NCBI GenBank assembly: GCA_964598885.1
Contig: CAZRES010000004.1
Location: forward strand, 5,545 to 69,544
DNA length: 64,000 bases
Origin: an uncultured Desulfobacteraceae bacterium
GTDB taxonomy: Bacteria > Desulfobacterota > Desulfobacteria > Desulfobacterales > Desulfosalsimonadaceae
Reading direction: 5' to 3'
Position numbers and translations under genes: made by a program
In this document: in pieces, positions 24,747 to 36,062 of the stretch
How the letters are laid out: each line of letters begins with the position of its first letter
Numbering within the stretch: the first letter of the stretch is position 1
The notes under the pieces: generated by a model
What the model was told of the DNA's origin: nothing
Databases searched by the model: none
The model's input: the letters and a program-made list of their open reading frames with translations, nothing else

Positions 24747-25580
24747 ATGAGTGTCGTGAAATCATATTCCAGGCGGATTTTGTTCTGGTGCCTCATATTT
24801 TTCATTATTGTTGCCATGATCGTGATGTTTGCCGGTTATGCGGCATGGCGTTTTCTTTTTTCATCGCTGCCCATGCCGGTACTTTATGAGGCGGCGGCGG
24901 GGAACCCTGATTTTCAGAAGGGATTGGATCAGATCCGGCCCTGGATCGATTATGCCGGACATTTTTTTATTCCATTGACCGGAGGAATTTGTTTGCTGCT
25001 GGCTCTGATTTTCTGGCTGATTCTGCGCCGCTCCATTTCTAACGTCGCGTTTCGGGAGGGAATGGCCGCCGGCAAAGATGCCGGAAAAATAAAGGTGCCC
25101 CCGGATCGCGCCAAACCGAAAAGAGACGCGGCCGAACGTTCGGTACCCGATGATGCCGGTCCTGAAGTCCGGGAATCGGAGGCAGACCGGCAGGCCCGCA
25201 TGCAGCGTCTTTATCTGCATCTGCTTTCCGTGTTTCAACGGGAAGGACGAATGGTGGATTTTTTTACCGAGGATTTAACCCCGTATGATGATGCCCAGAT
25301 CGGGGTGGCGGTACGCAACATTCATGAAAACTGCGCCAAGACCCTTCAGAAATATTTAAAGCCGAAGGCCGTTATTGAAAAACAGGAGGGGGAGGAGATC
25401 CGTGTGCCCAAAAATTTTGATGTGGATGCCATTAAACTGACCGGCAATGTATCCGGTGAGCCGCCTTTTAACGGAATTCTGCGCCACAGGGGATGGCAGG
25501 CCGGCCGGATTGAAGTGCCGGTGCTCAATCCCGGTCATAACCCTCGGATCATCGCCCCGGCAGAGGTGGAAATTTTATAA
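24747..25580 (+). CDS. Membrane protein with a C-terminal DUF2760-like domain
   Basis: 277-aa ORF with two hydrophobic helices (ILFWCLIFFIIVAMIVMFAGYAAW; FFIPLTGGICLLLALIFWLIL) and a charged linker. The C-terminal part is RLYLHLLSVFQREGRMVDFFTEDLTPYDDAQIGVAVRNIHENC...LTGNVSGEPPFNGILRHRGWQA. Confidence 0.75.
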   Translation: MSVVKSYSRRILFWCLIFFIIVAMIVMFAGYAAWRFLFSSLPMPVLYEAAAGNPDFQKGLDQIRPWIDYAGHFFIPLTGGICLLLALIFWLILRRSISNVAFREGMAAGKDAGKIKVPPDRAKPKRDAAERSVPDDAGPEVRESEADRQARMQRLYLHLLSVFQREGRMVDFFTEDLTPYDDAQIGVAVRNIHENCAKTLQKYLKPKAVIEKQEGEEIRVPKNFDVDAIKLTGNVSGEPPFNGILRHRGWQAGRIEVPVLNPGHNPRIIAPAEVEIL

Positions 25581-25604
25581 GTTACATAGTAATGGAGCAG
25601 AGAT

Positions 25605-27422
25605 TTGACTGAGCCTTTTTATATCATCGGAATTGACCTGGGCACCACCAATAGCGTGGTGGCCTACACTCCCATCATTATTAACCCGGAGGTCCCGGAT
25701 AGCTCGGATCGCATTAAAATTTTAGATATTCCTCAGTTTGTGGATGCCGGAGCAATAGAAGAGCGTCCGGTGCTTCCGTCCTATATTTATGCTCCGAGTG
25801 TCCATGAAGCATCGAATGGAGCGTTTTCCCTGCCGTGGGACCCGGAAAACACCATGATCATCGGTGAATATGCCCGGCAGCGCGGGGCAGAAGTTCCGCA
25901 GCGCATGATTGCCTCAGCTAAATCCTGGCTCTGCCATACCATGATCGATCGAAACAAGGCGGTGCTGCCATGGGAGCGTCCCGATGAGGTCCCGGGATTT
26001 TCACCGGTAGAAGCATCGGCCGCGATCCTCGGTCATATCCGCCAGGCCTGGAATTTCCGGATGGCCGGCGGGGATCCAAACCTGAACATGGAACATCAGG
26101 AAATTTTTCTGACCGTGCCCGCTTCTTTTGACGCCGTAGCCAGGGAGCTGACGGTTCGAGCCGCGGAAATGGCCGGGCTGCCGCGTATTACGCTGCTGGA
26201 GGAGCCCCAGGCCGCTTTTTACGCATGGATTGCCTCTTCAGGAGATCAATGGCGGGGAAAAGTCCGCAAAGGGGATTTGGTCATCGTTTGCGACATCGGC
26301 GGCGGCACGGCTGATTTCAGTCTCATCCGGGTTTCCGAGGACAACGGTGAACTGGCCCTGGAGCGGATCGCCGTGGGAGATCACCTTCTGGTGGGCGGCG
26401 ACAATATGGACCTTGCACTGGCGTATCACGTATCCCGCAAAATGGCCGATGCCGGCACCCGTCTGGATTCCTGGCAGATGCGGGGGCTGGTGCAGAACTG
26501 CCGGTCGGCCAAGGAAGTGATGCTGTCTGATGCGGCCGTTTCCGAGTATCCGTTGACCATTCTGGGCCGGGGGAGCAGCCTGATCGGCGGCACGCTGAAA
26601 ACCTCCCTGGCGCCCACCGAGGTCGATACGCTGATGATGGACGGATTTTTCCCGTATTGCCGGTTCGATGAGACGCCCAAAAACGCATCACGGATGGGAC
26701 TCAAGGAAGCCGGGCTTTCCTATGAAGCCGATCCGGCCATCACCCGGCATTTGGCCCGGTTTCTGCACCGGCAGAAATCCGACGCCGATTCGGATGGCAG
26801 CCGTATCCCCACGGCGATACTGTTCAACGGCGGCGTGATGAAGGCTGCCTCTCTCCGGGAACGGATCATCCGCGCCATTGATTCCTGGCGCCCCGCGGGG
26901 TCCGAATCTGCGGTTCGGGAGATTCTCGCCCGGGATACGGATTTAGCCGTGGCAAGAGGCGCCGCCTATTACGGCATGGCCCGCCGCGGTTCCGGCATCC
27001 GGATCCGCGGCGGTCTCGGCAAATCCTATTATATCGGCGTGGCCGCATCCATGCCGGCGGTTCCCGGCATGCCGGCCCCGGTCAAGGCTCTTTGCGTGGC
27101 CCCGTTCGGAATGGAGGAAGGGAGCCACGCCCAAATCCAGGACCGGGAATTTGTTCTGGTGGTGGGCGAACCCGTGCGTTTCGACTTTTTGGGGTCCTCC
27201 GTTCGGAAAACCGACGCCATCGGCGATGTTGTCGAGGACTGGCAGGGAGACATTGGAGAGATCACCACCGTGGAAACCACTCTTGATGGCGAAACCGGCG
27301 GCATCGTCCGGGTAAATATCGAGATCAGCGTAACCGAAATCGGCACCATTGAACTCTGGTGCGCATCCCAGGATGATGAACAACGGTGGAAACTCGAATT
27401 CAACGTGCGGGAACAGGTCTGA
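25605..27422 (+). CDS. Non-canonical Hsp70-family ATPase (short paralogue)
   Basis: 605-aa ORF with a TTG start after ggag. Hsp70/actin-fold motifs are IGIDLGTTNSVVAY, VCDIGGGTADFSLI and LFNGGVMK. It has no DnaK-type substrate-binding domain. Its private C-terminal beta-rich module ends IELWCASQDDEQRWKLEFNVR. Confidence 0.9.
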   Translation: MTEPFYIIGIDLGTTNSVVAYTPIIINPEVPDSSDRIKILDIPQFVDAGAIEERPVLPSYIYAPSVHEASNGAFSLPWDPENTMIIGEYARQRGAEVPQRMIASAKSWLCHTMIDRNKAVLPWERPDEVPGFSPVEASAAILGHIRQAWNFRMAGGDPNLNMEHQEIFLTVPASFDAVARELTVRAAEMAGLPRITLLEEPQAAFYAWIASSGDQWRGKVRKGDLVIVCDIGGGTADFSLIRVSEDNGELALERIAVGDHLLVGGDNMDLALAYHVSRKMADAGTRLDSWQMRGLVQNCRSAKEVMLSDAAVSEYPLTILGRGSSLIGGTLKTSLAPTEVDTLMMDGFFPYCRFDETPKNASRMGLKEAGLSYEADPAITRHLARFLHRQKSDADSDGSRIPTAILFNGGVMKAASLRERIIRAIDSWRPAGSESAVREILARDTDLAVARGAAYYGMARRGSGIRIRGGLGKSYYIGVAASMPAVPGMPAPVKALCVAPFGMEEGSHAQIQDREFVLVVGEPVRFDFLGSSVRKTDAIGDVVEDWQGDIGEITTVETTLDGETGGIVRVNIEISVTEIGTIELWCASQDDEQRWKLEFNVREQV

Positions 27423-27436
27423 CGGGAAGATTCAGC

Positions 27437-30196
27437 ATGGAGGAAAAGCGATACATCATCGGCATCGATCTTGGGACCACCAATTCTGCTGTTTCTTACG
27501 TGGATCTGCATGCCGAAAATACAAAAAAACGGGGCATCCGGCTGTTCAAGATTCCTCAGCTGACCGGTCCGGGGGAATTGAGCGCCCTGTCGGTGTTGCC
27601 GTCCTTTTGCTATCTGCCCGGCGCTTATGATATATCCGAGGCGGCCATTCAACTGCCCTGGGAACATGATGATCCCGGGTTTGTGGGCAGGTTCGCCCGG
27701 GATCACGGTTCCCGCATCCCCGCCCGGCTGGTGGCGTCGGCCAAGAGCTGGCTCTGCCACTCCGGAGCGGACCGGCGGGCCCCCATCCTGCCCTGGGGCT
27801 CGGGGGATGATGTCCGGAAAATTTCACCGGTCCAGGCCACTGCTCTCTATCTGAACCATATCCGGCTGGCATGGAACAGCCGGCAGGGCGATGACGACGC
27901 CCTTTATCTTGAAAACCAGACCATCATCATCACGGTGCCGGCGTCCTTTGATGAAGTGGCCCGCGATCTGACCGTCGAGGCCGCCGGCATGGCGGGGTTG
28001 AAAAATGTGACCCTTCTGGAAGAGCCCCTGGCCGCTTTTTACAGCTGGCTGATCGCCCATGAGACCGATTGGCAGGATCACATCCGGCCCGGCGAATTGG
28101 TGCTGGTTTGCGATGTGGGCGGCGGCACCACGGATTTCACTCTCATTACCCTGGATGAAACCGAAGGCGCGCCCCGTTTTGTCCGGATCGCCGTGGGAGA
28201 CCATCTGATCCTTGGAGGCGACAATATTGATCTGGCCCTGGCCCGGCATGTGGAAAAAGACTTGGCCGGGCCGGCGCCCCTGGCCGGAGATCAGTGGAAA
28301 ACCCTTTGCCACTTGTGCCGGCAGGCTAAGGAAAATATACTCAATTCCGATATCCCCGCCGATACCGTGACTATGATGGGCAAGGGCACGCGCCTGATCG
28401 GCGGGACCCTGAGTGCCAAAATTCGACGGGAGAGCCTTGAAAAAATTGTACTGGACGGGTTTTTTCCTCTGGTAAAGCGCGACAGCGGTATTCCCCCATC
28501 CGCAATCCGCAAGGGGATTTCCGAGTTCGGCCTTCCCTATGCCACGGAACCGGCCATCACCCGGCACATCGGTATATTTCTGGAAAAACACCGGGATGAA
28601 GTACATAATCTGCTGCAAAAGAAGCCGCTTCCCGATTTCATCCTTTTTAACGGCGGCTCATTGAAAGCGACCGTGGTCCAGGAGCGGATCCGGGAGGCCA
28701 TCCGGGCCTGGTTTTCCGAGCCTGACGAACGTCTTCCCAGGGTCCTGAAAAATTCCGATCCGGATCTGGCCGTTGCCCTGGGAGCGGGATACTATGGCCT
28801 GGTCAAGGCGGGGCAGGGGGTGCGCGTGGGCAGCGGCAGCGCCCGGGCCTATTATCTCGGCCTTTCCGGCACTGCGGCTGAAAAGGAAAATCAAGCCATA
28901 TGCCTGGTGGAACGCGGCACCGAGGAAGGAGTGCGGATTCATCTGCCGGACCGCGTGTTTGAGGTGCTCACAAATCAACCGGTTCATTTCGCGCTTTACA
29001 GTTCCAGTTTTCGAAGCGGCGACAAAACCGGAGACCTGATTCCCGTGGACGACACCCTGACGCCTCTTCCGCCGGTGCAGACCGTGATCCAGTTCGGGCA
29101 AAAGGGGGTGAAGACCGCCATTCCCGTACAGATAGAAGCCGAATATACGGAAATGGGTATATTGGCCATCTGGTGCCGGTCTCTGTCCAGTCCGCACCGA
29201 TGGCGGCTTCAGTTCCAACTGCGGAGCGCCGATGCCGATACCGGGGTCCGGGACGCCGAGGTGTTTGAAGCTGATGTGGTGGATAAAGCCGTCTCTTTGC
29301 TTGAACAGGCTTTTTCCGAGCATGCCGACGGGGCGTCGCTGAACCGGATCGTTAAATCCATATCCGGGGTTGTGGGGCGCTCCCGGGAAAAATGGCCGCT
29401 CAGCTTTATCCGGACGCTGGCGGATCAGCTGTTAAGAATGCTTCCCAACCGCCGGTATTCCCCGGAACATGAAATCCGCTGGATGAACCTGACCGGGTAC
29501 TGCTTGCGACCCGGATTCGGCGATGGGCTGGATGAACAGCGAATCCGGCAATTATGGAAGATCTACAAACCGGGTGTTTTGTTCGGCAAAAATCCCCAGG
29601 CCAGCCAGGAATGGTGGATCCTCTGGCGTCGGGTGGCGGGCGGGCTTTCTTCCGGTCAGCAGCGGCAGTTTATCCAGGATGCGCGATCCCGGATTATTCC
29701 GCGAAAAGGAACAAAGATCAAAATCCGGCCCCAGGAACACTATGAGGTCTGGATGGCCGTTGCCAATATGGAACGCCTGGGCGTAAGGGATAAAATCGAG
29801 TTCGGACGGCAGCTGTTAAAAACCATTCAGCCCCGGAAGATTATTTTGCAACTGGTCTGGTCTCTATCGCGGATCGGGGCCAGGGACCTGCTTTACGGTC
29901 CGGTGGACCGAGTGGTGCCGTCTTCGGAAGCGGCGGAATGGGCGAACCGGCTCATGGAACTGGAGCCGCGCAACCCGATTCCCGTGGGCAATGCGCTGGT
30001 TCAAATGACGCGAAAGACCGGGGATCGCGCCCGGGATATGGATTCAAAGACCATTGATCGCGTGTCGGTTTGGCTGGAACAGCACCAGATGACCGATAAG
30101 ATAAGGTTTCTGACCATGGTGATTCCCATGGAGCGTCAGGACGAAACCCTGATGTTCGGGGAGGAACTTCCTTCCGGAATCACCCTCAAACAATAA
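27437..30196 (+). CDS. Non-canonical Hsp70-family ATPase (long paralogue with a helical C-terminal extension of about 320 aa)
   Basis: The internal ATG at 27437 gives MEEKRYIIGIDLGTTNSAVSYV. Other motifs are VCDVGGGTTDFTLI and LFNGGSLK. The module homologous to the preceding gene ends LAIWCRSLSSPHRWRLQFQLR. It is followed by a W/R/L-rich helical tail. Confidence 0.9.
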   Translation: MEEKRYIIGIDLGTTNSAVSYVDLHAENTKKRGIRLFKIPQLTGPGELSALSVLPSFCYLPGAYDISEAAIQLPWEHDDPGFVGRFARDHGSRIPARLVASAKSWLCHSGADRRAPILPWGSGDDVRKISPVQATALYLNHIRLAWNSRQGDDDALYLENQTIIITVPASFDEVARDLTVEAAGMAGLKNVTLLEEPLAAFYSWLIAHETDWQDHIRPGELVLVCDVGGGTTDFTLITLDETEGAPRFVRIAVGDHLILGGDNIDLALARHVEKDLAGPAPLAGDQWKTLCHLCRQAKENILNSDIPADTVTMMGKGTRLIGGTLSAKIRRESLEKIVLDGFFPLVKRDSGIPPSAIRKGISEFGLPYATEPAITRHIGIFLEKHRDEVHNLLQKKPLPDFILFNGGSLKATVVQERIREAIRAWFSEPDERLPRVLKNSDPDLAVALGAGYYGLVKAGQGVRVGSGSARAYYLGLSGTAAEKENQAICLVERGTEEGVRIHLPDRVFEVLTNQPVHFALYSSSFRSGDKTGDLIPVDDTLTPLPPVQTVIQFGQKGVKTAIPVQIEAEYTEMGILAIWCRSLSSPHRWRLQFQLRSADADTGVRDAEVFEADVVDKAVSLLEQAFSEHADGASLNRIVKSISGVVGRSREKWPLSFIRTLADQLLRMLPNRRYSPEHEIRWMNLTGYCLRPGFGDGLDEQRIRQLWKIYKPGVLFGKNPQASQEWWILWRRVAGGLSSGQQRQFIQDARSRIIPRKGTKIKIRPQEHYEVWMAVANMERLGVRDKIEFGRQLLKTIQPRKIILQLVWSLSRIGARDLLYGPVDRVVPSSEAAEWANRLMELEPRNPIPVGNALVQMTRKTGDRARDMDSKTIDRVSVWLEQHQMTDKIRFLTMVIPMERQDETLMFGEELPSGITLKQ

Positions 30197-30365
30197 GGCG
30201 CTCGGGCGGAATGTTTCGGGTTGTTTCGTTCCGCTCTTGAGATTCGCCGGACAATAAGGTAGGTTGCCTCCATATGATTTGAGGAGAACGTGGCCGCATG
30301 ACGGCGTCGCGCCGTGACGGTCTGCGATCGTAACGTTTGGAAAAGAAAAAAGGAGATCCGGAACA

Positions 30366-30581
30366 ATGGGATCATCCGACAGGATTACCATCAACGCCCG
30401 CATCCGCATTCCCGCCGGGATTGTCGAAACTGTCGTTAAAAACGCCAAGCAGATCGCCGGGGTGGATGAAAAGGGAGTTTATCGGGTGGACACCGCGGAA
30501 AAACTCAATGAATTGATCGGTCATTTTCTGGAAGCCCGGGACTTTGCCGGATATGTCAGCGATATTCGAAATTATACATAG
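30366..30581 (+). CDS. Hypothetical 71-aa protein
   Basis: The ATG is preceded by aaaaggag with a 9-nt spacing. The composition is balanced (MGSSDRITINARIRIPAGIVETVVKNAKQIAG...). It ends 3 nt before the next ORF. I recognise no family. Confidence 0.5.
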   Translation: MGSSDRITINARIRIPAGIVETVVKNAKQIAGVDEKGVYRVDTAEKLNELIGHFLEARDFAGYVSDIRNYT

Positions 30582-30584
30582 CAA

Positions 30585-31376
30585 TTGTCGGCTGCATCAG
30601 GGCGTCGGCGGGTGGCGAGCGTGAAGCCATGGCTGGTGGCGCATCGCGGCGCCATGGCGGAAGCCCCGGAAAACACCCGGTCCGCTTTTGACAGAGCATT
30701 GTCTTATCCGGTGGACGGCATTGAGTTGGATGTTCAGAGCTCCAGCGACGGGGTTCCGGTAATTTATCATGATGACACCTTGAAAAAAATCAGCGGCAGT
30801 TTTCGGGCGGTCGCGGATTATCCTTTTGATCATCTATCCGCAACGGACGCAGGGCGGTGGTTTTCCCCCGTATATGCCGGTGAACGGCTCATGACGCTGG
30901 AAGAAGTTTTTACATCCTATGGGACCAGGACCCGTTTGATGGTGGAAATCAAACCCCCGGTGCGGGAAAAACACCAGGCTCTCTGTCGGAAATTGGCCCG
31001 AACCGTTGCGGAAATGATGAGAGAACGGGTTCCGGCGGATATGCAGGAAAACATGTACGTGCTTTCCTTTGATCCCGAATTGCTCAAAATCGTGCGGGAG
31101 CGTGATCCGGACCGCCGCTGCGTTTTAAACCTGAATCAGCCGATAGAGCGGGTTTCCGATTTGGGGATCCCCATCGATGCGCTGCATGGCTGGGGCCTGG
31201 AACTTACCCGGTTGAATCGGAATTTTATCGCTCTGGGCCATGGTCATGGGCAGAAAATCATGACCTATTCCTGCAATACCGGCAAAACCATTCGCCGGGC
31301 CCTTGATCTGGGCGTGGATGTCATCATGACCGATGACCCCGGCAGCGCGCATTCTTACATTAAACAATTGGATTAA
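30585..31376 (+). CDS. Glycerophosphodiester phosphodiesterase family protein
   Basis: 263-aa ORF with the GDPD motifs VAHRGAMAEAPENT, IELDVQ and the HDD region. The start is uncertain: TTG at 30585 or GTG at 30621. Confidence 0.85.
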   Translation: MSAASGRRRVASVKPWLVAHRGAMAEAPENTRSAFDRALSYPVDGIELDVQSSSDGVPVIYHDDTLKKISGSFRAVADYPFDHLSATDAGRWFSPVYAGERLMTLEEVFTSYGTRTRLMVEIKPPVREKHQALCRKLARTVAEMMRERVPADMQENMYVLSFDPELLKIVRERDPDRRCVLNLNQPIERVSDLGIPIDALHGWGLELTRLNRNFIALGHGHGQKIMTYSCNTGKTIRRALDLGVDVIMTDDPGSAHSYIKQLD

Positions 31377-31444
31377 AAAAAATTTCATATATTATCGGCA
31401 ATATCAGTAAAAATCTAACTAAAAACCTGTATGACCGTCAGGGG

Positions 31445-33190
31445 ATGAGGGATGGCATGAAAAGACAAATAATGTTGCTTTTGTTTATTTTCCTAATGTG
31501 GCCCGGTCATGTGCTGCGGGCCGCTGATATTCCTACGAACGTGACCTTGAGCGCCACCGTCAATACGATCACGGTCACCTGGACCCGCGAAAGCCTGGCG
31601 GAAGGCTATTATGTATATTGGGGGACGACATCCGGCAATCTCAGCAACCGCGATCAGGTAGATTCTTCGGACACCAGCTACACCATTTCCGGGCTGCAGC
31701 AGGGGACGACCTATTATGTGGCGGTTTCATCATTCTCCGCCGGATCGGAATCCCAGAAATCCGTCGTCAAATCTATTACCACAAGCACGGATACGGCGGC
31801 TCCCCAAAAACCCTCAGGCCTGGACGTGACCGCCTTGAGCGCCGTCACCGGAACATCGGCGACCCTGCGCTGGAATGCCAATTCTGAAACCGATCTGAGT
31901 CATTACAATCTGTATTGGGGCACACTATCCGGCAATTACAGTGCGATAGTCGAAGCCGCCGTAAATGAGAATACCTCCTTTACCGTCACCGGCCTGAATG
32001 GAGCCATGCGCTATTACGCTGCCGTCACAGCTGTGGATGAAACGGGTAACGAATCGGATTTTTCCGATGAAATCATCATTGACACGCTTCCGGACACGCG
32101 GCCGCCAAAAGTTCCTGCAGGAGTGACCAGCCGCTTGAGTGGTTTTCGTGAAATCACCATCAGCATTGAAAACGGTAATTCCGCCATGGTCGATTTTGCC
32201 GGTCATATTATCCATTATGGAACCGCAGCAGGTCACTATACGAAAACTCTTGATATCGGCAACAGCATGACGCATGTTTTTGCCGATTTGACGGATGATA
32301 CCACATGGTTTTTTACCGTAAAGGCCTATGACGCCGACGGTAATGAAAGCAATCCATCTGAAGAGGTTTCTGCTGAAGTCGAGGATACCCGTGCATTTCT
32401 GGATCAGGAAAGTTTTGATGGCGGCTGTTTTATTTCATCAACGGGAACCAAATCCCCGGTTTGGCAGAAGGCGCTGTTTTTCGGACTGGCATTGGCCGTG
32501 ATCCTGTTATATGGTTGCTTAAGCAGACCACAAGTTGCGCTGATGGGAGCGATTTGTTCGGCGTTTATCCGGCGGTTTGTTCACCGGATTGCCGGCTGCC
32601 TGATGGCTGCGATGATTTTGGTCGGCGCCATGGCAGTGGAAGCGGATGCCGAAGAAAGGGTTGGCGACAATCTGGTGGGCGTGTCCGCCGGCTGGCTGAT
32701 CCCGGCGGAATCCGAATTTGAAAATCATTATGGAGACGACACGTATCCGGTTTTTGCGTTTTTTGAGCGCCGTATCGGGAAATTTTTTTCTGTGGGCGTC
32801 GAATCCGGGTTCATGAAAAAGACCGGTAAGCGGCTGACCGTATCCGGGGACCTTACAGATATTGACACCAAGTTTACCCTGGTGCCGGTGACAGCTTCCG
32901 TGAAACTGCACATGAAGCTGTTTCCCTATATTTCCGGATTTATCGGCGCCGGACCAGACTACTGGTATTGCCGCGAAAAGACCAAAATCAATGTCCGTGA
33001 TCCCAAAACGGAAAAATGGGTCGGCGGGTGGCACGGCCGGGCCGGTCTGACGCTTTTTAACATGGACCCGCGCTATGAGAACACCGGAGCGATCATTGAA
33101 ACGGTCTACAGCGAGATCGACCGGTTCGGCGGCAACCATCGTGATATCGGCGGCGTCAGTTTCCGACTCGGCTTTTTTTACGGATTTTAG
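31445..33190 (+). CDS. Composite exported protein: signal peptide, three FN3 domains, a GGCFISS motif plus TM helix, a second signal-peptide-like segment, and a small OMP-type beta-barrel ending in F
   Basis: 581-aa continuous ORF. FN3 signatures recur three times (VTWT..Y.VYWG, LRWN...Y.LYWG, YY.AV..D..GNES). GGCFI is at aa 326-330 (nt 32420-32434). The hydrophobic helix is ALFFGLALAVILLYGCL, followed by SR. M367 (nt 32543) opens MGAICSAFIRRFVHRIAGCLMAAMILVGAMAVEADA. The tail has alternating beta-strand-like sequence ending GVSFRLGFFYGF. Confidence 0.75.
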   Translation: MRDGMKRQIMLLLFIFLMWPGHVLRAADIPTNVTLSATVNTITVTWTRESLAEGYYVYWGTTSGNLSNRDQVDSSDTSYTISGLQQGTTYYVAVSSFSAGSESQKSVVKSITTSTDTAAPQKPSGLDVTALSAVTGTSATLRWNANSETDLSHYNLYWGTLSGNYSAIVEAAVNENTSFTVTGLNGAMRYYAAVTAVDETGNESDFSDEIIIDTLPDTRPPKVPAGVTSRLSGFREITISIENGNSAMVDFAGHIIHYGTAAGHYTKTLDIGNSMTHVFADLTDDTTWFFTVKAYDADGNESNPSEEVSAEVEDTRAFLDQESFDGGCFISSTGTKSPVWQKALFFGLALAVILLYGCLSRPQVALMGAICSAFIRRFVHRIAGCLMAAMILVGAMAVEADAEERVGDNLVGVSAGWLIPAESEFENHYGDDTYPVFAFFERRIGKFFSVGVESGFMKKTGKRLTVSGDLTDIDTKFTLVPVTASVKLHMKLFPYISGFIGAGPDYWYCREKTKINVRDPKTEKWVGGWHGRAGLTLFNMDPRYENTGAIIETVYSEIDRFGGNHRDIGGVSFRLGFFYGF

Positions 33191-33196
33191 CACGCA

Positions 33197-33940
33197 ATGA
33201 AGGTGGTGTTCGACACACTGTTTCATGAGGTATATGCGTCGGATCCGGCCGCTGTCATCGGGCGCATGCAGGCGGCGGTCGCGCTGCTGCCCGCCGAGGT
33301 TGAACTGGTCGCTCCCGAGCCGGCTAGCAGGCGCGAGATTGAACTGGCGCATACTTCCGGTCATATAGACGATGTCCGGCACGATGGGGTTTACGACATT
33401 GCCGCCCTGGCCGCCGGCGGGGCCATTATGGCGGCCCGTATCGGCATGGAGGACCCCTGTTTTGCCCTGATTCGCCCGCCGGGGCATCATGCGTCCGCGG
33501 ACACGGCCTGGGGGTTCTGCTATTTTAACAACATGGCCATTGCGCTGCTTTGTCTGAAATCCGAGAACCTGATCCAGTCGGCCCTGGTGCTGGATATCGA
33601 TCTTCATTACGGCGACGGCACTATCAACATTCTGGGAGACCGGGACTGGGTCAGTATTCACAATCCGGCCAAAAACCGGAGGCAGGAGTACGTAAGGGAC
33701 GTGGAAGAGGCGTTGGATGCCAATAAAGTGGATATGATCGGCGTTTCCGCCGGATTCGATCACCACCGTCGGGACTGGGGCGGGCTCCTGGAAACCGAGG
33801 ATTATCAGGAGATCGGGCGCCTGGTGCGGGCCGCGGCCCGGAAAAACCAGGGTGGATGCTTTGGGGTGTTTGAGGGGGGATACAATCACCAGGTTCTGGG
33901 TCAAAACGTGGCGGCTTTTGTCAGCGGGATGACGCCATGA
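33197..33940 (+). CDS. Compact histone-deacetylase/acetoin-utilisation (arginase-fold deacetylase) family protein
   Basis: 247-aa ORF with IRPPGHHA, VLDIDLHYGDGT, SAGFDHH and FEGGYN motifs. Its stop overlaps the ispF ATG (33937-33940). Confidence 0.85.
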   Translation: MKVVFDTLFHEVYASDPAAVIGRMQAAVALLPAEVELVAPEPASRREIELAHTSGHIDDVRHDGVYDIAALAAGGAIMAARIGMEDPCFALIRPPGHHASADTAWGFCYFNNMAIALLCLKSENLIQSALVLDIDLHYGDGTINILGDRDWVSIHNPAKNRRQEYVRDVEEALDANKVDMIGVSAGFDHHRRDWGGLLETEDYQEIGRLVRAAARKNQGGCFGVFEGGYNHQVLGQNVAAFVSGMTP

Positions 33941-34404
33941 GGGTGGGCATTGGATACGATGTTCATGCGTTTGCCGATGATCGGATACTGGTGCTGGGCG
34001 GGGAGGCCATTCCCCATGAGCAGGGGTTGGCGGGCCATTCGGATTCCGACGTGCTGGTGCACGCGGTTTGCGACGCGCTCCTCGGGGCCGCCGGCATGGG
34101 GGATATCGGCCGGCATTTTCCGGATACGGACCCGGCCTTCAAGGATATCCGCAGCATGGTGCTGCTGGAACGGATCATGGATTTGATTCGTTCCAGGGGG
34201 CTGGCCGTGACCAATATCGACGCCACGATTCTTGCCGAAGCTCCTCGAATGTGGCCGCATATTCCGGCCATGCGGAAAAATATCAGTCAGGTCCTGGGCG
34301 TGCCGTTAGAGGACGTCAACATTAAGGCCACCACTTCGGAAAACCTGGGCTTTATCGGGAGAAGGGAAGGCATTGCCGCTATGTGTGCGGCTCTGCTGGA
34401 TTGA
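33937..34404 (+). CDS. ispF: 2-C-methyl-D-erythritol 2,4-cyclodiphosphate synthase
   Basis: 155-aa ORF with MRVGIGYDVHAF, GHSDSDVLVHAVCDALLGA and GDIGRHFPDTD. Confidence 0.95.
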   Translation: MRVGIGYDVHAFADDRILVLGGEAIPHEQGLAGHSDSDVLVHAVCDALLGAAGMGDIGRHFPDTDPAFKDIRSMVLLERIMDLIRSRGLAVTNIDATILAEAPRMWPHIPAMRKNISQVLGVPLEDVNIKATTSENLGFIGRREGIAAMCAALLD

Positions 34405-34595
34405 TGGGTTTTCACTGCGACCGGACCGCCGCGATGTCCTGGATGGTTTTGAAAACCATAACGTATGTTGGTTCCGCAACGCGTCGGATTTTTTGCTGAT
34501 AGAGTTTTTCAGGGCGCGATTTTTTTTGAAATCCACGATCCCGCGCAACACCGGCGCACTGCGGTTCTGTCAACTTTACCGAAAATGGAATTTTT

Positions 34596-36062
34596 ATGAC
34601 GATTCGTGTTTACAATACCCTAACCCGGGGCAAAGAACCGTTGGAACCCATGACTCCCGGCAAGGTGCGGATGTATGTCTGCGGGCCCACGGTCTATGAC
34701 TCCTGCCATATCGGGCATGCCCGTTCCGTGGTGGTGTTTGATATGATTTTCCGATACCTGACCGCGTGCGGGTATGAGGTCACCTATGTGCGCAATTTTA
34801 CGGACATCGACGACAAGATCATTAACCGTGCCAAGGAACTGGGTATGACTACCCAGGCCCTGGCGGAAAAATACATCATTGAATTTCACCAGGACATGGA
34901 TGCCCTGAACAATTTGCGGCCCACCATTGAACCCAAAGCCACGGAGCATATTCCCCGGATTATCGCCGTGATCCAGCGTCTGGTTGAAAAGGAATACGCC
35001 TATGCAATAGACGGAGATGTATTTTTCCGGGTACGCGCCCATGAAGGATACGGTAAACTTTCCGGCCGGAAGCTTGACGACATGGAAGCCGGCGCCCGGG
35101 TCGATATCGATCCGAGAAAGGAAAATCCCTTTGATTTCGTGTTATGGAAGGCCTCCAAGCCGGGCGAGCCTTTCTGGGAGAGTCCCTGGGGAAAGGGACG
35201 ACCCGGATGGCACATTGAATGCTCGGCCATGAGCGCGGACTATCTGGGGGAGAGCTTTGACATCCACGGCGGGGGCAAGGATCTGATTTTCCCCCATCAT
35301 GAAAACGAAATCGCCCAATCCGAGGCCGCCTTCGGCAAAACGTTTGTCAAATACTGGCTGCACAATGGATTCGTCAATATCGACCAGGAAAAGATGTCCA
35401 AATCCCTGGGAAATTTCCGCACGATCCGGGAAATCCTGAAAACCTGCCATCCCGAAGCCCTGCGCCTGTTTCTCCTCTCCAGCCATTACCGGAGTCCGGT
35501 GGATTTCAATGGCCAGGCCATCCGGGATGCCGGGGTTTCCCTGGACAAAATTTACGCTCTTCTGGAACGGATCGAAAAAAGTACGGGGGGTCTGCCGCCG
35601 ATGAAAGGGGGGACAACGGCTCCGGGAGAAGACCAGAGCGAAGACTGGCGGCGTTTCTGTGAGGCCATGAACGATGATTTCAATTCGGCAATGGCCACCG
35701 GGATTCTGTTTGACGTCGTCCGGAATTTGAACCGGCGGCTGGATGTCCGGGAGGCGAATGCCGATGGCGAGGAAAAAGATACAGCGGCTCTTGTTTCGTC
35801 TGCCATTGATCTGCTGCGCATGGGACGGATCTTGGGAATCATGGCCGAACCACCTGGTACATACATGGCACGCCAACGGGAGACGGCCATGGCGGATAAT
35901 GCCGTTGATCCCGAAACCGTCGAAGCATTGATCCGGGAGCGAAAAGCGGCCCGGGGCAGACGGGATTTTGCCGCGGCTGATGCCATCCGGGACCGGCTCA
36001 AGGCCATGAATATCGTGCTGGAGGACCGATCCGACGGCACCAGCTGGAAATTTATCCGGTAA
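34596..36062 (+). CDS. cysS: Cysteine--tRNA ligase
   Basis: 488-aa ORF with [18 protein letters not shown] (HIGH) and KMSKSLGN. Confidence 0.95.

Follow-up and report, generated by a model that had tools for sequence, protein, structure and literature searches.

The systems most readily compared with the gene analyzed here come from Myxococcus xanthus. In the sections of the reports that treat it, the MYXO-CTERM tag is described as a short motif with an invariant Cys, a transmembrane helix, and an Arg-rich cluster (bioRxiv 10.1101/2023.06.07.544157; PMC11980579), and Myxococcus MYXO-CTERM signals are presented in the relevant section as being cleaved by the CPBP protease MrtX and routed by type II secretion (PMC11980579). 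The M. xanthus gene sgmI, which encodes a fibronectin type III (FN3) protein with a MYXO-CTERM, is co-transcribed with the barrel gene MXAN_2562 (bioRxiv 10.64898/2026.08.28.747804). Here we describe a gene of an uncultured Desulfobacteraceae bacterium in which the two halves of such a pair appear to be joined in one reading frame. It lies in a stretch of 64,000 nucleotides (nt) of assembly GCA_964598885.1 (contig CAZRES010000004.1, positions 5,545 to 69,544 of the forward strand), hereafter the window, from whose first letter its coordinates are counted. Like the pair sgmI (MXAN_2561)/MXAN_2562 (families NF045522 and NF040596), the window gene encodes an exported FN3 protein with a tripartite Cys tag and then a small outer-membrane (OM) barrel. 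The pair, however, consists of two genes with a MYXO-CTERM in Myxococcota, whereas the window gene is one frame with a GGCFI motif of the CFI-box type in Desulfobacterota, and its product falls below both family cut-offs of the sgmI pair (40.6 bits vs 150, and no match to the barrel family).

A second comparison is offered by MXAN_5598, an adhesin that is said in a single passing mention to carry an internal MYXO-CTERM and then an OM barrel; in that passage the authors consider that it may represent two fused genes and propose that its N-terminal part is processed and surface-anchored (PMC11980579). It is like the window protein in that a nominally C-terminal Cys tag stands mid-chain with an OM barrel next, and unlike it in its passenger, its tag family, and its barrel, which has an OmpA cell-wall domain. 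The passage is silent on an internal signal peptide, on variants without the hairpin, and on conservation across the family; it is the only published case we found in which a barrel comes after an internal Cys-type tag. In the TraA/TraB system of M. xanthus, the open reading frame (ORF) of a MYXO-CTERM receptor overlaps that of its OM barrel partner and the two act jointly at the outer membrane (PMC11980579, PMC3325183). Unlike the window gene, these are separate genes with an OmpA domain in TraB and a PA14/Cys-rich passenger, and the likeness does not imply membrane exchange for the window protein. What would be new here is the presence of a CFI-box-type motif in Desulfobacterales, the family-wide counts that bear on an internal signal peptide, and a set of natural hairpin-less and helix-less variants.

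An earlier sequence-only reading had proposed that one ORF of 581 amino acids (aa) joins two exported proteins, namely three FN3 repeats with a tail resembling a sorting signal, and then a fresh signal peptide with an eight-strand-sized barrel. Frame analysis of the window confirms a single open frame of 581 aa on the plus strand at 31445..33190, and the layout and its conservation support the reading as a whole (Table 1). We make one small correction to that ORF: the true start is probably the ATG at 31457 (M5), because GAGG lies 5 nt 5' of it, a length of 577 aa is recorded for the gene call (P0001), and orthologous proteins start with MK. The three FN3 repeats are borne out by Pfam fn3 (PF00041; 82.1 bits vs a cut-off of 25, in three stretches) and by an AlphaFold2 model built on a 32-sequence alignment (mean predicted local distance difference test score, pLDDT, 83), in which three beta-sandwiches are modeled with pLDDT >90. 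The top Foldseek matches are three-FN3 fragments (E=4e-18); with the full-length model the search returned FN3 proteins only and is uninformative for the barrel. The motif GGCFISS is found where it had been placed, at nt 32420-32440 (G326-S332), in a segment that is modeled as disordered, and the hydrophobic helix ALFFGLALAVILLYGCL is present with SR next to it. M367 is encoded at nt 32543, and both the segment MGAICSAFIRRFVHRIAGCLMAAMILVGAMAVEADA and its end VEADA are as reported. AlphaFold2 predicts helices at 339-358 and 369-395 and then exactly eight strands across 409-580 (pLDDT about 90), consistent with the proposed barrel and its C-terminal ...FRLGFFYGF. No family in Pfam or NCBIfam spans the junction, in keeping with two joined proteins rather than a single domain family.

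We favor, with fair but limited confidence, the hypothesis that the window gene encodes one precursor that is cut at an internal signal peptide into an FN3 passenger and an OM barrel, the passenger keeping a Cys-type sorting tail. In this scheme the N-terminal signal peptide would take the three FN3 domains over the inner membrane via Sec, the helix after GGCFI (helix 1) would halt transfer, and the basic loop behind it would remain cytoplasmic. The second helix (helix 2) would then resume export as an internal signal peptide, with signal peptidase I cutting after A-D-A at about residue 402, and the freed 179-residue domain would be put into the outer membrane by the beta-barrel assembly machinery as an eight-stranded barrel. 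The FN3 passenger would retain GGCFI, the helix, and the basic tail, an ensemble like CFI-box-CTERM or MYXO-CTERM, and would probably undergo processing at the invariant Cys or close to it before acting with its own barrel at the outer membrane. A precedent for the cut itself is the cytochrome b/c1 protein FbcH of Bradyrhizobium, one precursor whose internal signal sequence is cut by signal peptidase to give two envelope/membrane proteins. FbcH and the window protein are unrelated, both FbcH products are inner-membrane proteins, and FbcH has neither a sorting tag nor an OM barrel.

Several lines of evidence support that the fusion is real. A search of 5.8 billion proteins recovered about 30 orthologues of full length (542-617 aa), which share 33-71% identity with the query across 99% of it, from Desulfobacteraceae, Desulfosalsimonadaceae, and related metagenome-assembled genomes (MAGs), and the overall layout recurs in about 60 related proteins, which places it far from chance. 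A scan of species-representative genomes identified 29 Desulfobacterales MAGs with the gene, all fused, with one copy interrupted by a contig end. Among 201 genomes of the same order the barrel was matched in 18, and 15 of the 15 strong matches lie within open frames of 454-608 aa. When orthologous loci are checked for splitting, those at the syntenic locus keep one continuous frame; three of them, at about 45% identity, are syntenic with the window (L005, L006, L007), and one of the three has no hairpin. A fusion artefact, that is, a lost stop, a frameshift, or the mis-assembly of two adjacent genes, has nothing in its favor beyond the unusual layout, and we assign it a negligible probability given that dozens of assemblies, made independently in different studies and covering different taxa, show the same frame at 33-80% identity. 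Since the continuous frame is conserved in orthologues and species genomes, an assembly error or recent pseudo-fusion can be regarded as excluded, and the suggestion of a lost stop or sequencing error, which had been raised beside that of a real fusion, falls with it. The real fusion is supported by one frame in the orthologues and in the 29 species genomes and by true split pairs elsewhere.

These split pairs connect the window gene with the two-gene arrangement. At one locus (L004) a gene for three FN3 domains ends in FQGGCFITVSKE (GGCFITVSKE before the stop), and 13 nt on, in the same frame, follows a 199-aa barrel with its own signal peptide, MYHSKTFIIISLGLLLLPISA. In Candidatus Alcyoniella (L036) the FN3 protein ends in a genuine CFI-box-CTERM (69 bits), and its gene shares 4 nt with a barrel gene assigned by PGAP to the MXAN_2562 family. 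A third locus (L037) encodes a beta-propeller and FN3 protein ending in GGGCFIATAAFRAPRRANRDFQMK, with a stand-alone barrel 22 nt downstream. In addition, one protein, P0101, belongs to both curated families in a single chain (CFI_box_CTERM, 104.8 bits over a cut-off of 40; MXAN_2562_fam, 108.2 bits over a cut-off of 100). Based on the split pairs, on P0101, and on the sgmI/MXAN_2562 pair, we conclude that the window gene is, as far as sequence comparison can tell, the natural fused form of a recurrent two-gene module composed of an exported FN3 surface protein with a Cys tag and a small OM barrel.

The junction between the two halves has the features of a membrane hairpin followed by a signal peptide. 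Across 70 two-helix relatives, the loop between the helices holds on average 4.0 K+R against 0.3 D+E, with about 1 K+R in the flanks; small residues occupy -3 and -1 after every second segment, and the putative cleavage site lies a median of 4 residues ahead of the barrel. Under a strict rule, by which [AVS]-x-A must lie no more than 12 residues from the hydrophobic core, a site follows helix 2 in 57 of the 70 and helix 1 in 13. For an internal Sec signal peptide we looked for a basic n-region, a hydrophobic h-region some 12-17 residues long, and small side chains at -3/-1, and the window protein presents RRFVHR, IAGCLMAAMILVGAMAV, and the small residues of E-A-D-A, respectively. The internal signal peptide also aligns with the N-terminal signal peptides of stand-alone barrels. 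Given the basic loop and the counts of [AVS]-x-A after helix 2, we read helix 2 as resembling a Sec signal peptide that could be cleaved; helix 1 resembles a stop-transfer anchor whose basic tail is cytoplasmic. A lipoprotein-type cut by signal peptidase II at helix 2 was considered and rejected, as the h-region is followed by a lipobox Cys in neither the window protein nor the orthologues. Weak matches of the hairpin to exosortase/archaeosortase (E=0.075) and to FUSC_2 (E=0.06-0.08) were likewise dismissed as reflecting hydrophobic composition only.

The same features bear on the idea that the chain stays uncut, so that the FN3 module is covalently tethered to the barrel, or to the inner membrane by the hairpin, as one envelope protein. 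The linker from helix 2 to the first barrel strand is only about 10 residues, too short for the periplasm, and an uncut chain could therefore not occupy both membranes. The basic n-region and A-x-A c-region of helix 2, with the 57 to 13 distribution given above, also argue against it, as do the stand-alone barrels, which have an ordinary signal peptide at their N-terminus in the corresponding place. In its favor, a number of fusions at the syntenic locus (L006, L012, L014, P0029, P0030, P0064, and others) link GGCF[IV] to the barrel by 14-50 hydrophilic residues, and the hairpin has been lost at least twice, which implies that a tethered state is viable. On balance, we regard an uncut window protein as unlikely. 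Another possibility, also raised by the sequence-only reading, is that the barrel is made separately from an internal start at M367, the locus being in effect two overlapping genes. An in-frame ATG does stand ahead of the segment resembling a signal peptide. The 15 nt before ATG 32543 contain, however, no Shine-Dalgarno-like sequence, the loop Met is unconserved in orthologues such as P0002, P0009, and P0015, and no promoter-like site rises above background on the plus strand. We therefore consider internal initiation very improbable here and unlikely as a general mechanism.

The Cys motif is highly conserved. G326, G327, C328, F329, and I330 are invariant in the orthologue alignment, and over 58 proteins the consensus is F-[DE]-G-G-C-F-I-[SAG]-[ST]-[AS], with C in 100%, F in 98%, and I in 84%; from the motif to the barrel the sequence is unconserved and the physical pattern is conserved. 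The tripartite layout of a MYXO-CTERM-type tag is recognizable in the invariant C328, the helix at 343-359, and the loop residues R361, R376, R377, and R381. The element also resembles CFI-box-CTERM, which starts with G-G-C-F-I-(A/S)-(T/S)-A and ends with a hydrophobic helix and basic residues; the corresponding parts of the window protein are GGCFISST, ALFFGLALAVILLYGCL, and SR...RR..HR. Unlike CFI-box-CTERM, the window protein retains the first block and the helix without the middle of about 45 residues, and the element is internal, with 222 residues after the helix. In several relatives the full NF041770 domain begins at the same GGCFI (P0031, 92 bits; P0101, 105; P0070, 72; P0215, 69). The term "CFI-box" was not met in any paper of the literature searched. 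In the full CFI-box fusions P0031, P0070, P0071, P0088, P0089, and P0101 we observe three hydrophobic segments between motif and barrel; taken at face value, three segments would place the barrel on the wrong side of the membrane, and therefore one of them may not span it.

The C-terminal half belongs to a barrel family that also exists on its own. The last 215 residues give a weak match to Pfam OMP_b-brl (E=7e-5), and a barrel-only profile run against 1.8 billion representatives identified 288 proteins at E<=0.001. Homology to members of NF040596 is demonstrated by profile searches: 34 of 54 stand-alone barrels match this family (best E=3e-37), the stand-alone barrel P0117 is named MXAN_2562 family by PGAP, and a profile-profile comparison with hhalign gives a probability of 100% and E=2e-45, a score inflated by four close relatives in the second alignment. 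Among 13 close barrels, 3 match NF040596 weakly (best E=7e-6). A profile search of the PDB sequences revealed no solved barrel relative, the best match being a chance one (E=0.8). In the AlphaFold2 model the conserved terminal F and the lengths of loops and turns are consistent with the usual N-in/C-in topology. We also took a census of full-length barrel matches among 210 proteins pooled from the orthologue and barrel-profile searches. It contains 95 C-terminal fusions and 51 stand-alone barrels of 190-250 aa, 43 of which have an N-terminal hydrophobic segment; P0065 was rejected as a stand-alone barrel because it begins 44 nt from the edge of its contig, so that truncation of a fusion is the probable explanation. 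Sixty-eight fusions have the Cys motif and two helices and 13 have the Cys motif without a helix. The motif is mostly GGCFI, with GGCSL, GLCFL, and others also found, and the passengers are either three FN3 domains or a beta-helix with FN3.

This architecture invites comparison with type Va autotransporters, in which a signal peptide and an N-terminal passenger are likewise encoded in one gene with a C-terminal OM barrel, and a loose analogy of this kind had been suggested for the window protein. The corresponding hypothesis is that the barrel carries its own FN3 passenger over the outer membrane. Beyond the shared order of passenger and barrel, it can draw on the hairpin-less forms, which are single chains. 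Type Va barrels, however, have 12 strands with a linker in the pore and no intervening membrane helices, whereas the window barrel has 8 strands in about 175 residues and no helical linker is predicted inside it. Two membrane helices with cleavable-looking topogenic signals separate passenger and barrel in most members, neither Pfam nor NCBIfam yields an autotransporter family match, and the same barrel family is also encoded as a separate gene. Self-export of this sort thus has very little to recommend it, and the analogy is not supported.

For processing of the precursor we can point to candidate machinery elsewhere in the genome. It encodes two CPBP (Rce1-like) proteases (C31 and C24) and two GspD secretins that score over the cut-off. 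Homologs of the C31 CPBP protein occur in 14 of 14 fusion carriers vs 88 of 187 non-carriers in the order, a contrast inflated by relatedness, as the carriers fall in 7 families. The CPBP genes are not adjacent to the FN3-barrel gene and are not classified as myxosortases. At the C31 locus (L008 1459-3284, corresponding to C31:11361-13621 on the minus strand; also L029) we observe that the CPBP gene overlaps the end of the frame of a 532-aa polytopic membrane protein. This protein contains FIRIRDHLLLSNSVGKKITQFYYQYTLYPAEVFK; of the partial matches in the genome to the central part of CFI-box-CTERM, this one is the best (21.9 bits, E=5e-4, model positions 20-50). The same contig also carries, about 8 kb away, a gene for a GspD secretin. 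The locus might point to the machinery that processes the CFI-box, or the coincidence could be due to chance.

The comparisons above establish how the window protein is built, that this architecture is conserved, that both halves are homologous to the split pair, and that helix 2 resembles a signal peptide. The two cleavages are inferred, as are any lipidation, the place where the passenger ends up, and its contact with the barrel, and a number of observations weigh against the proposed maturation. First, both cleavages are predictions, and the assignment of helix 2 as a signal peptide derives from simple residue counts. Second, searches with the curated families came back empty: neither the window protein nor its junction matches CFI-box-CTERM (NF041770, 69 positions, cut-off 40 bits) at E<=10, the locus is not among the matches listed when its own genome is scanned with NF041770, and a search with NF040596 (cut-off 100 bits) at E<=1 yields nothing in the window protein or elsewhere in the genome. 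By these curated tests the protein is a remote, trimmed relative that stands outside both families. Third, the window protein is the only exported protein in the 3.55-Mb genome with G-x-C-[FILV]-[ILVF] and a helix, whereas classical sorting systems have many substrates per genome. Fourth, no processing enzyme is encoded adjoining the FN3-barrel gene, C31-type CPBP proteins are also present in hairpin-less carriers, and the link between CPBP and the fusion, confounded by phylogeny, is suggestive only. Fifth, no helix lies between GGCF[IV] and the barrel in 13 of 79 close relatives and in about 7 of the 29 species genomes; in the window's own family two genera carry the hairpin and two lack it, and the helix-less split FN3 genes (L004, L037, L001) end a few residues past the motif. 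In the hairpin-less proteins the passenger must stay tethered to the barrel, and there the motif cannot act as a membrane-helix sorting tag. Finally, AlphaFold2 models of the window protein and of the hairpin-less P0030 show no defined contact between motif and barrel, the motif being disordered in both; in P0030, modeled to see whether GGCFI docks on the barrel, the disorder covers 331-351 and counts as evidence neither way.

The hairpin-less variants also suggest a second role for the motif. A barrel tree of 79 close relatives contains 59 proteins with the hairpin, 13 without, and 6 stand-alone barrels, and the hairpin-less state requires at least 3 changes, two of which correspond to well-supported clades nested among hairpin-bearing lineages. 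About a quarter of the orthologues have no hairpin yet retain GGCF[IV], and all hairpin-less forms except P0092 keep it. The hairpin is thus dispensable, and its loss on at least two occasions indicates that permanent tethering of the passenger to the periplasmic N-terminus of the barrel is viable, in line with a passenger and a barrel acting next to each other at the outer membrane. Because hairpin-less fusions and helix-less split genes both retain the motif, GGCF[IV] must have a role for which no membrane helix is required. One hairpin-less protein, from the Desulfobacterales bacterium CG23 MAG (L042, PCSG01000303.1), reads GGCFINTAAVSHAETTEAP and contains the remnant ...VSHAETTEAP. Its SHA-E may be the leftover c-region of an internal signal peptide, which suggests a clean internal deletion of the hairpin.

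We therefore entertain, as a tentative idea in which we place rather little confidence, that (F-D)-G-G-C-F-I is an element that hands the passenger to its own barrel or holds it there, so that passenger and barrel form a self-contained OM anchoring unit for which the hairpin is a dispensable delivery device. This would explain the invariant motif in at least two hairpin-deleted clades, the motif at the end of the L004, L037, and L001 proteins, and the association of barrel and motif; this barrel family is almost always fused to or adjoining a Cys-motif protein. As a more distant idea, G-G-C-F is also the self-cleavage site of Hedgehog. No Hint or intein module was detected in the window protein with Pfam or AlphaFold2.

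Sorting signals such as LPXTG, PEP-CTERM, and MYXO-CTERM are defined by their terminal position, whereas this family keeps its tag, complete in all its parts, mid-chain and immediately before a second signal peptide. Its conservation extends over Desulfobacterales and, in a looser sense, over at least 95 cluster representatives. If the hypothesis of internal cleavage is correct, one Sec substrate would enter the membrane as a hairpin and be cleaved to yield a passenger and an OM barrel. The fusion is also Rosetta-stone evidence that Cys-tagged FN3 proteins and MXAN_2562-type barrels act together, thereby giving a testable role to a barrel family without known function and to the unpublished CFI-box signal. 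The hairpin-less and helix-less variants separate the role of the motif from that of the helix, and the natural series from full CFI-box to short tag, to no hairpin, and to split genes provides a ready set of constructs for work on both motif and hairpin. Considering its one short precedent in the literature, we would describe the window gene as a solid lead rather than a new principle.

Table 1. Coordinates of the fused precursor, its parts, and its neighborhood in the window (aa, amino acids; AF2, AlphaFold2; SP, signal peptide; GDPD, glycerophosphodiester phosphodiesterase gene)
Feature	Position (nt)	Strand	Residues	Remarks
Coding sequence of fused precursor	31457..33190	+		577 aa from likely ATG 31457; 581 aa from in-frame ATG 31445; stop 33188-33190
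N-terminal Sec SP MKRQIMLLLFIFLMWPGHVLRA	31457..31522	+	5-26	AF2 helix 2-17, then low-confidence stretch; conserved in all orthologues; cleavage presumed
FN3 domain 1	31529..31783	+	about 29-113	Pfam fn3 best stretch 29-106; AF2 strands 31-112, pLDDT >90
FN3 domain 2	31802..32086	+	about 120-214	Pfam fn3, AF2
FN3 domain 3	32108..32383	+	about 222-313	Pfam fn3, AF2
Cys motif F-D-G-G-C-F-I-S-S	32414..32440	+	324-332	First block of CFI-box-CTERM sorting signal; middle of domain missing
Hydrophobic helix TM1 (helix 1) ALFFGLALAVILLYGCL	32471..32521	+	343-359	Putative stop-transfer anchor / sorting-tail helix; hydropathy; AF2 helix 339-358; in 59/79 close family members
Basic loop SRPQVALMGAICSAFIRRFVHR	32522..32587	+	360-381	Predicted cytoplasmic; basic end of putative sorting signal and n-region of putative internal SP
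Putative internal SP, h-region IAGCLMAAMILVGAMAV, c-region E-A-D-A	32588..32650	+	h-region 382-398	Signal peptidase I cut after A402 predicted; cleavage presumed
Eight-stranded OM beta-barrel	32651..33187	+	403-581	Remote member of MXAN_2562 / Bd0486 superfamily; ends beta-signal-like ...LGFFYGF
Syntenic neighborhood	24747-36062			DUF2760, Hsp70-like, Hsp70-like/DUF3731, 71-82 aa ORF, GDPD, FN3-barrel gene, variable gene, ispF, cysS

In the conserved neighborhood, the glycerophosphodiester phosphodiesterase gene always lies immediately 5' of the FN3-barrel gene, and the variable gene is, in the window, that of a histone deacetylase (HDAC)-like deacetylase. The stop codon of the FN3-barrel gene precedes the HDAC-like ATG (33197) by 6 nt (window 33188-33199), and the HDAC-like gene itself overlaps ispF. 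From this spacing it follows that the FN3-barrel gene is probably co-transcribed with housekeeping genes, outside any dedicated secretion locus. A scan for promoters and terminators revealed nothing above background. Finally, the genome GCA_024280875.1 holds, in addition to a fused hairpin-type copy (L043), a paralogous protein with three FN3 domains that ends in GGCFISALSGR (L001 5001-6032). This paralog has neither a helix nor an adjacent barrel gene, and the gene that comes after it encodes an asparagine synthase.

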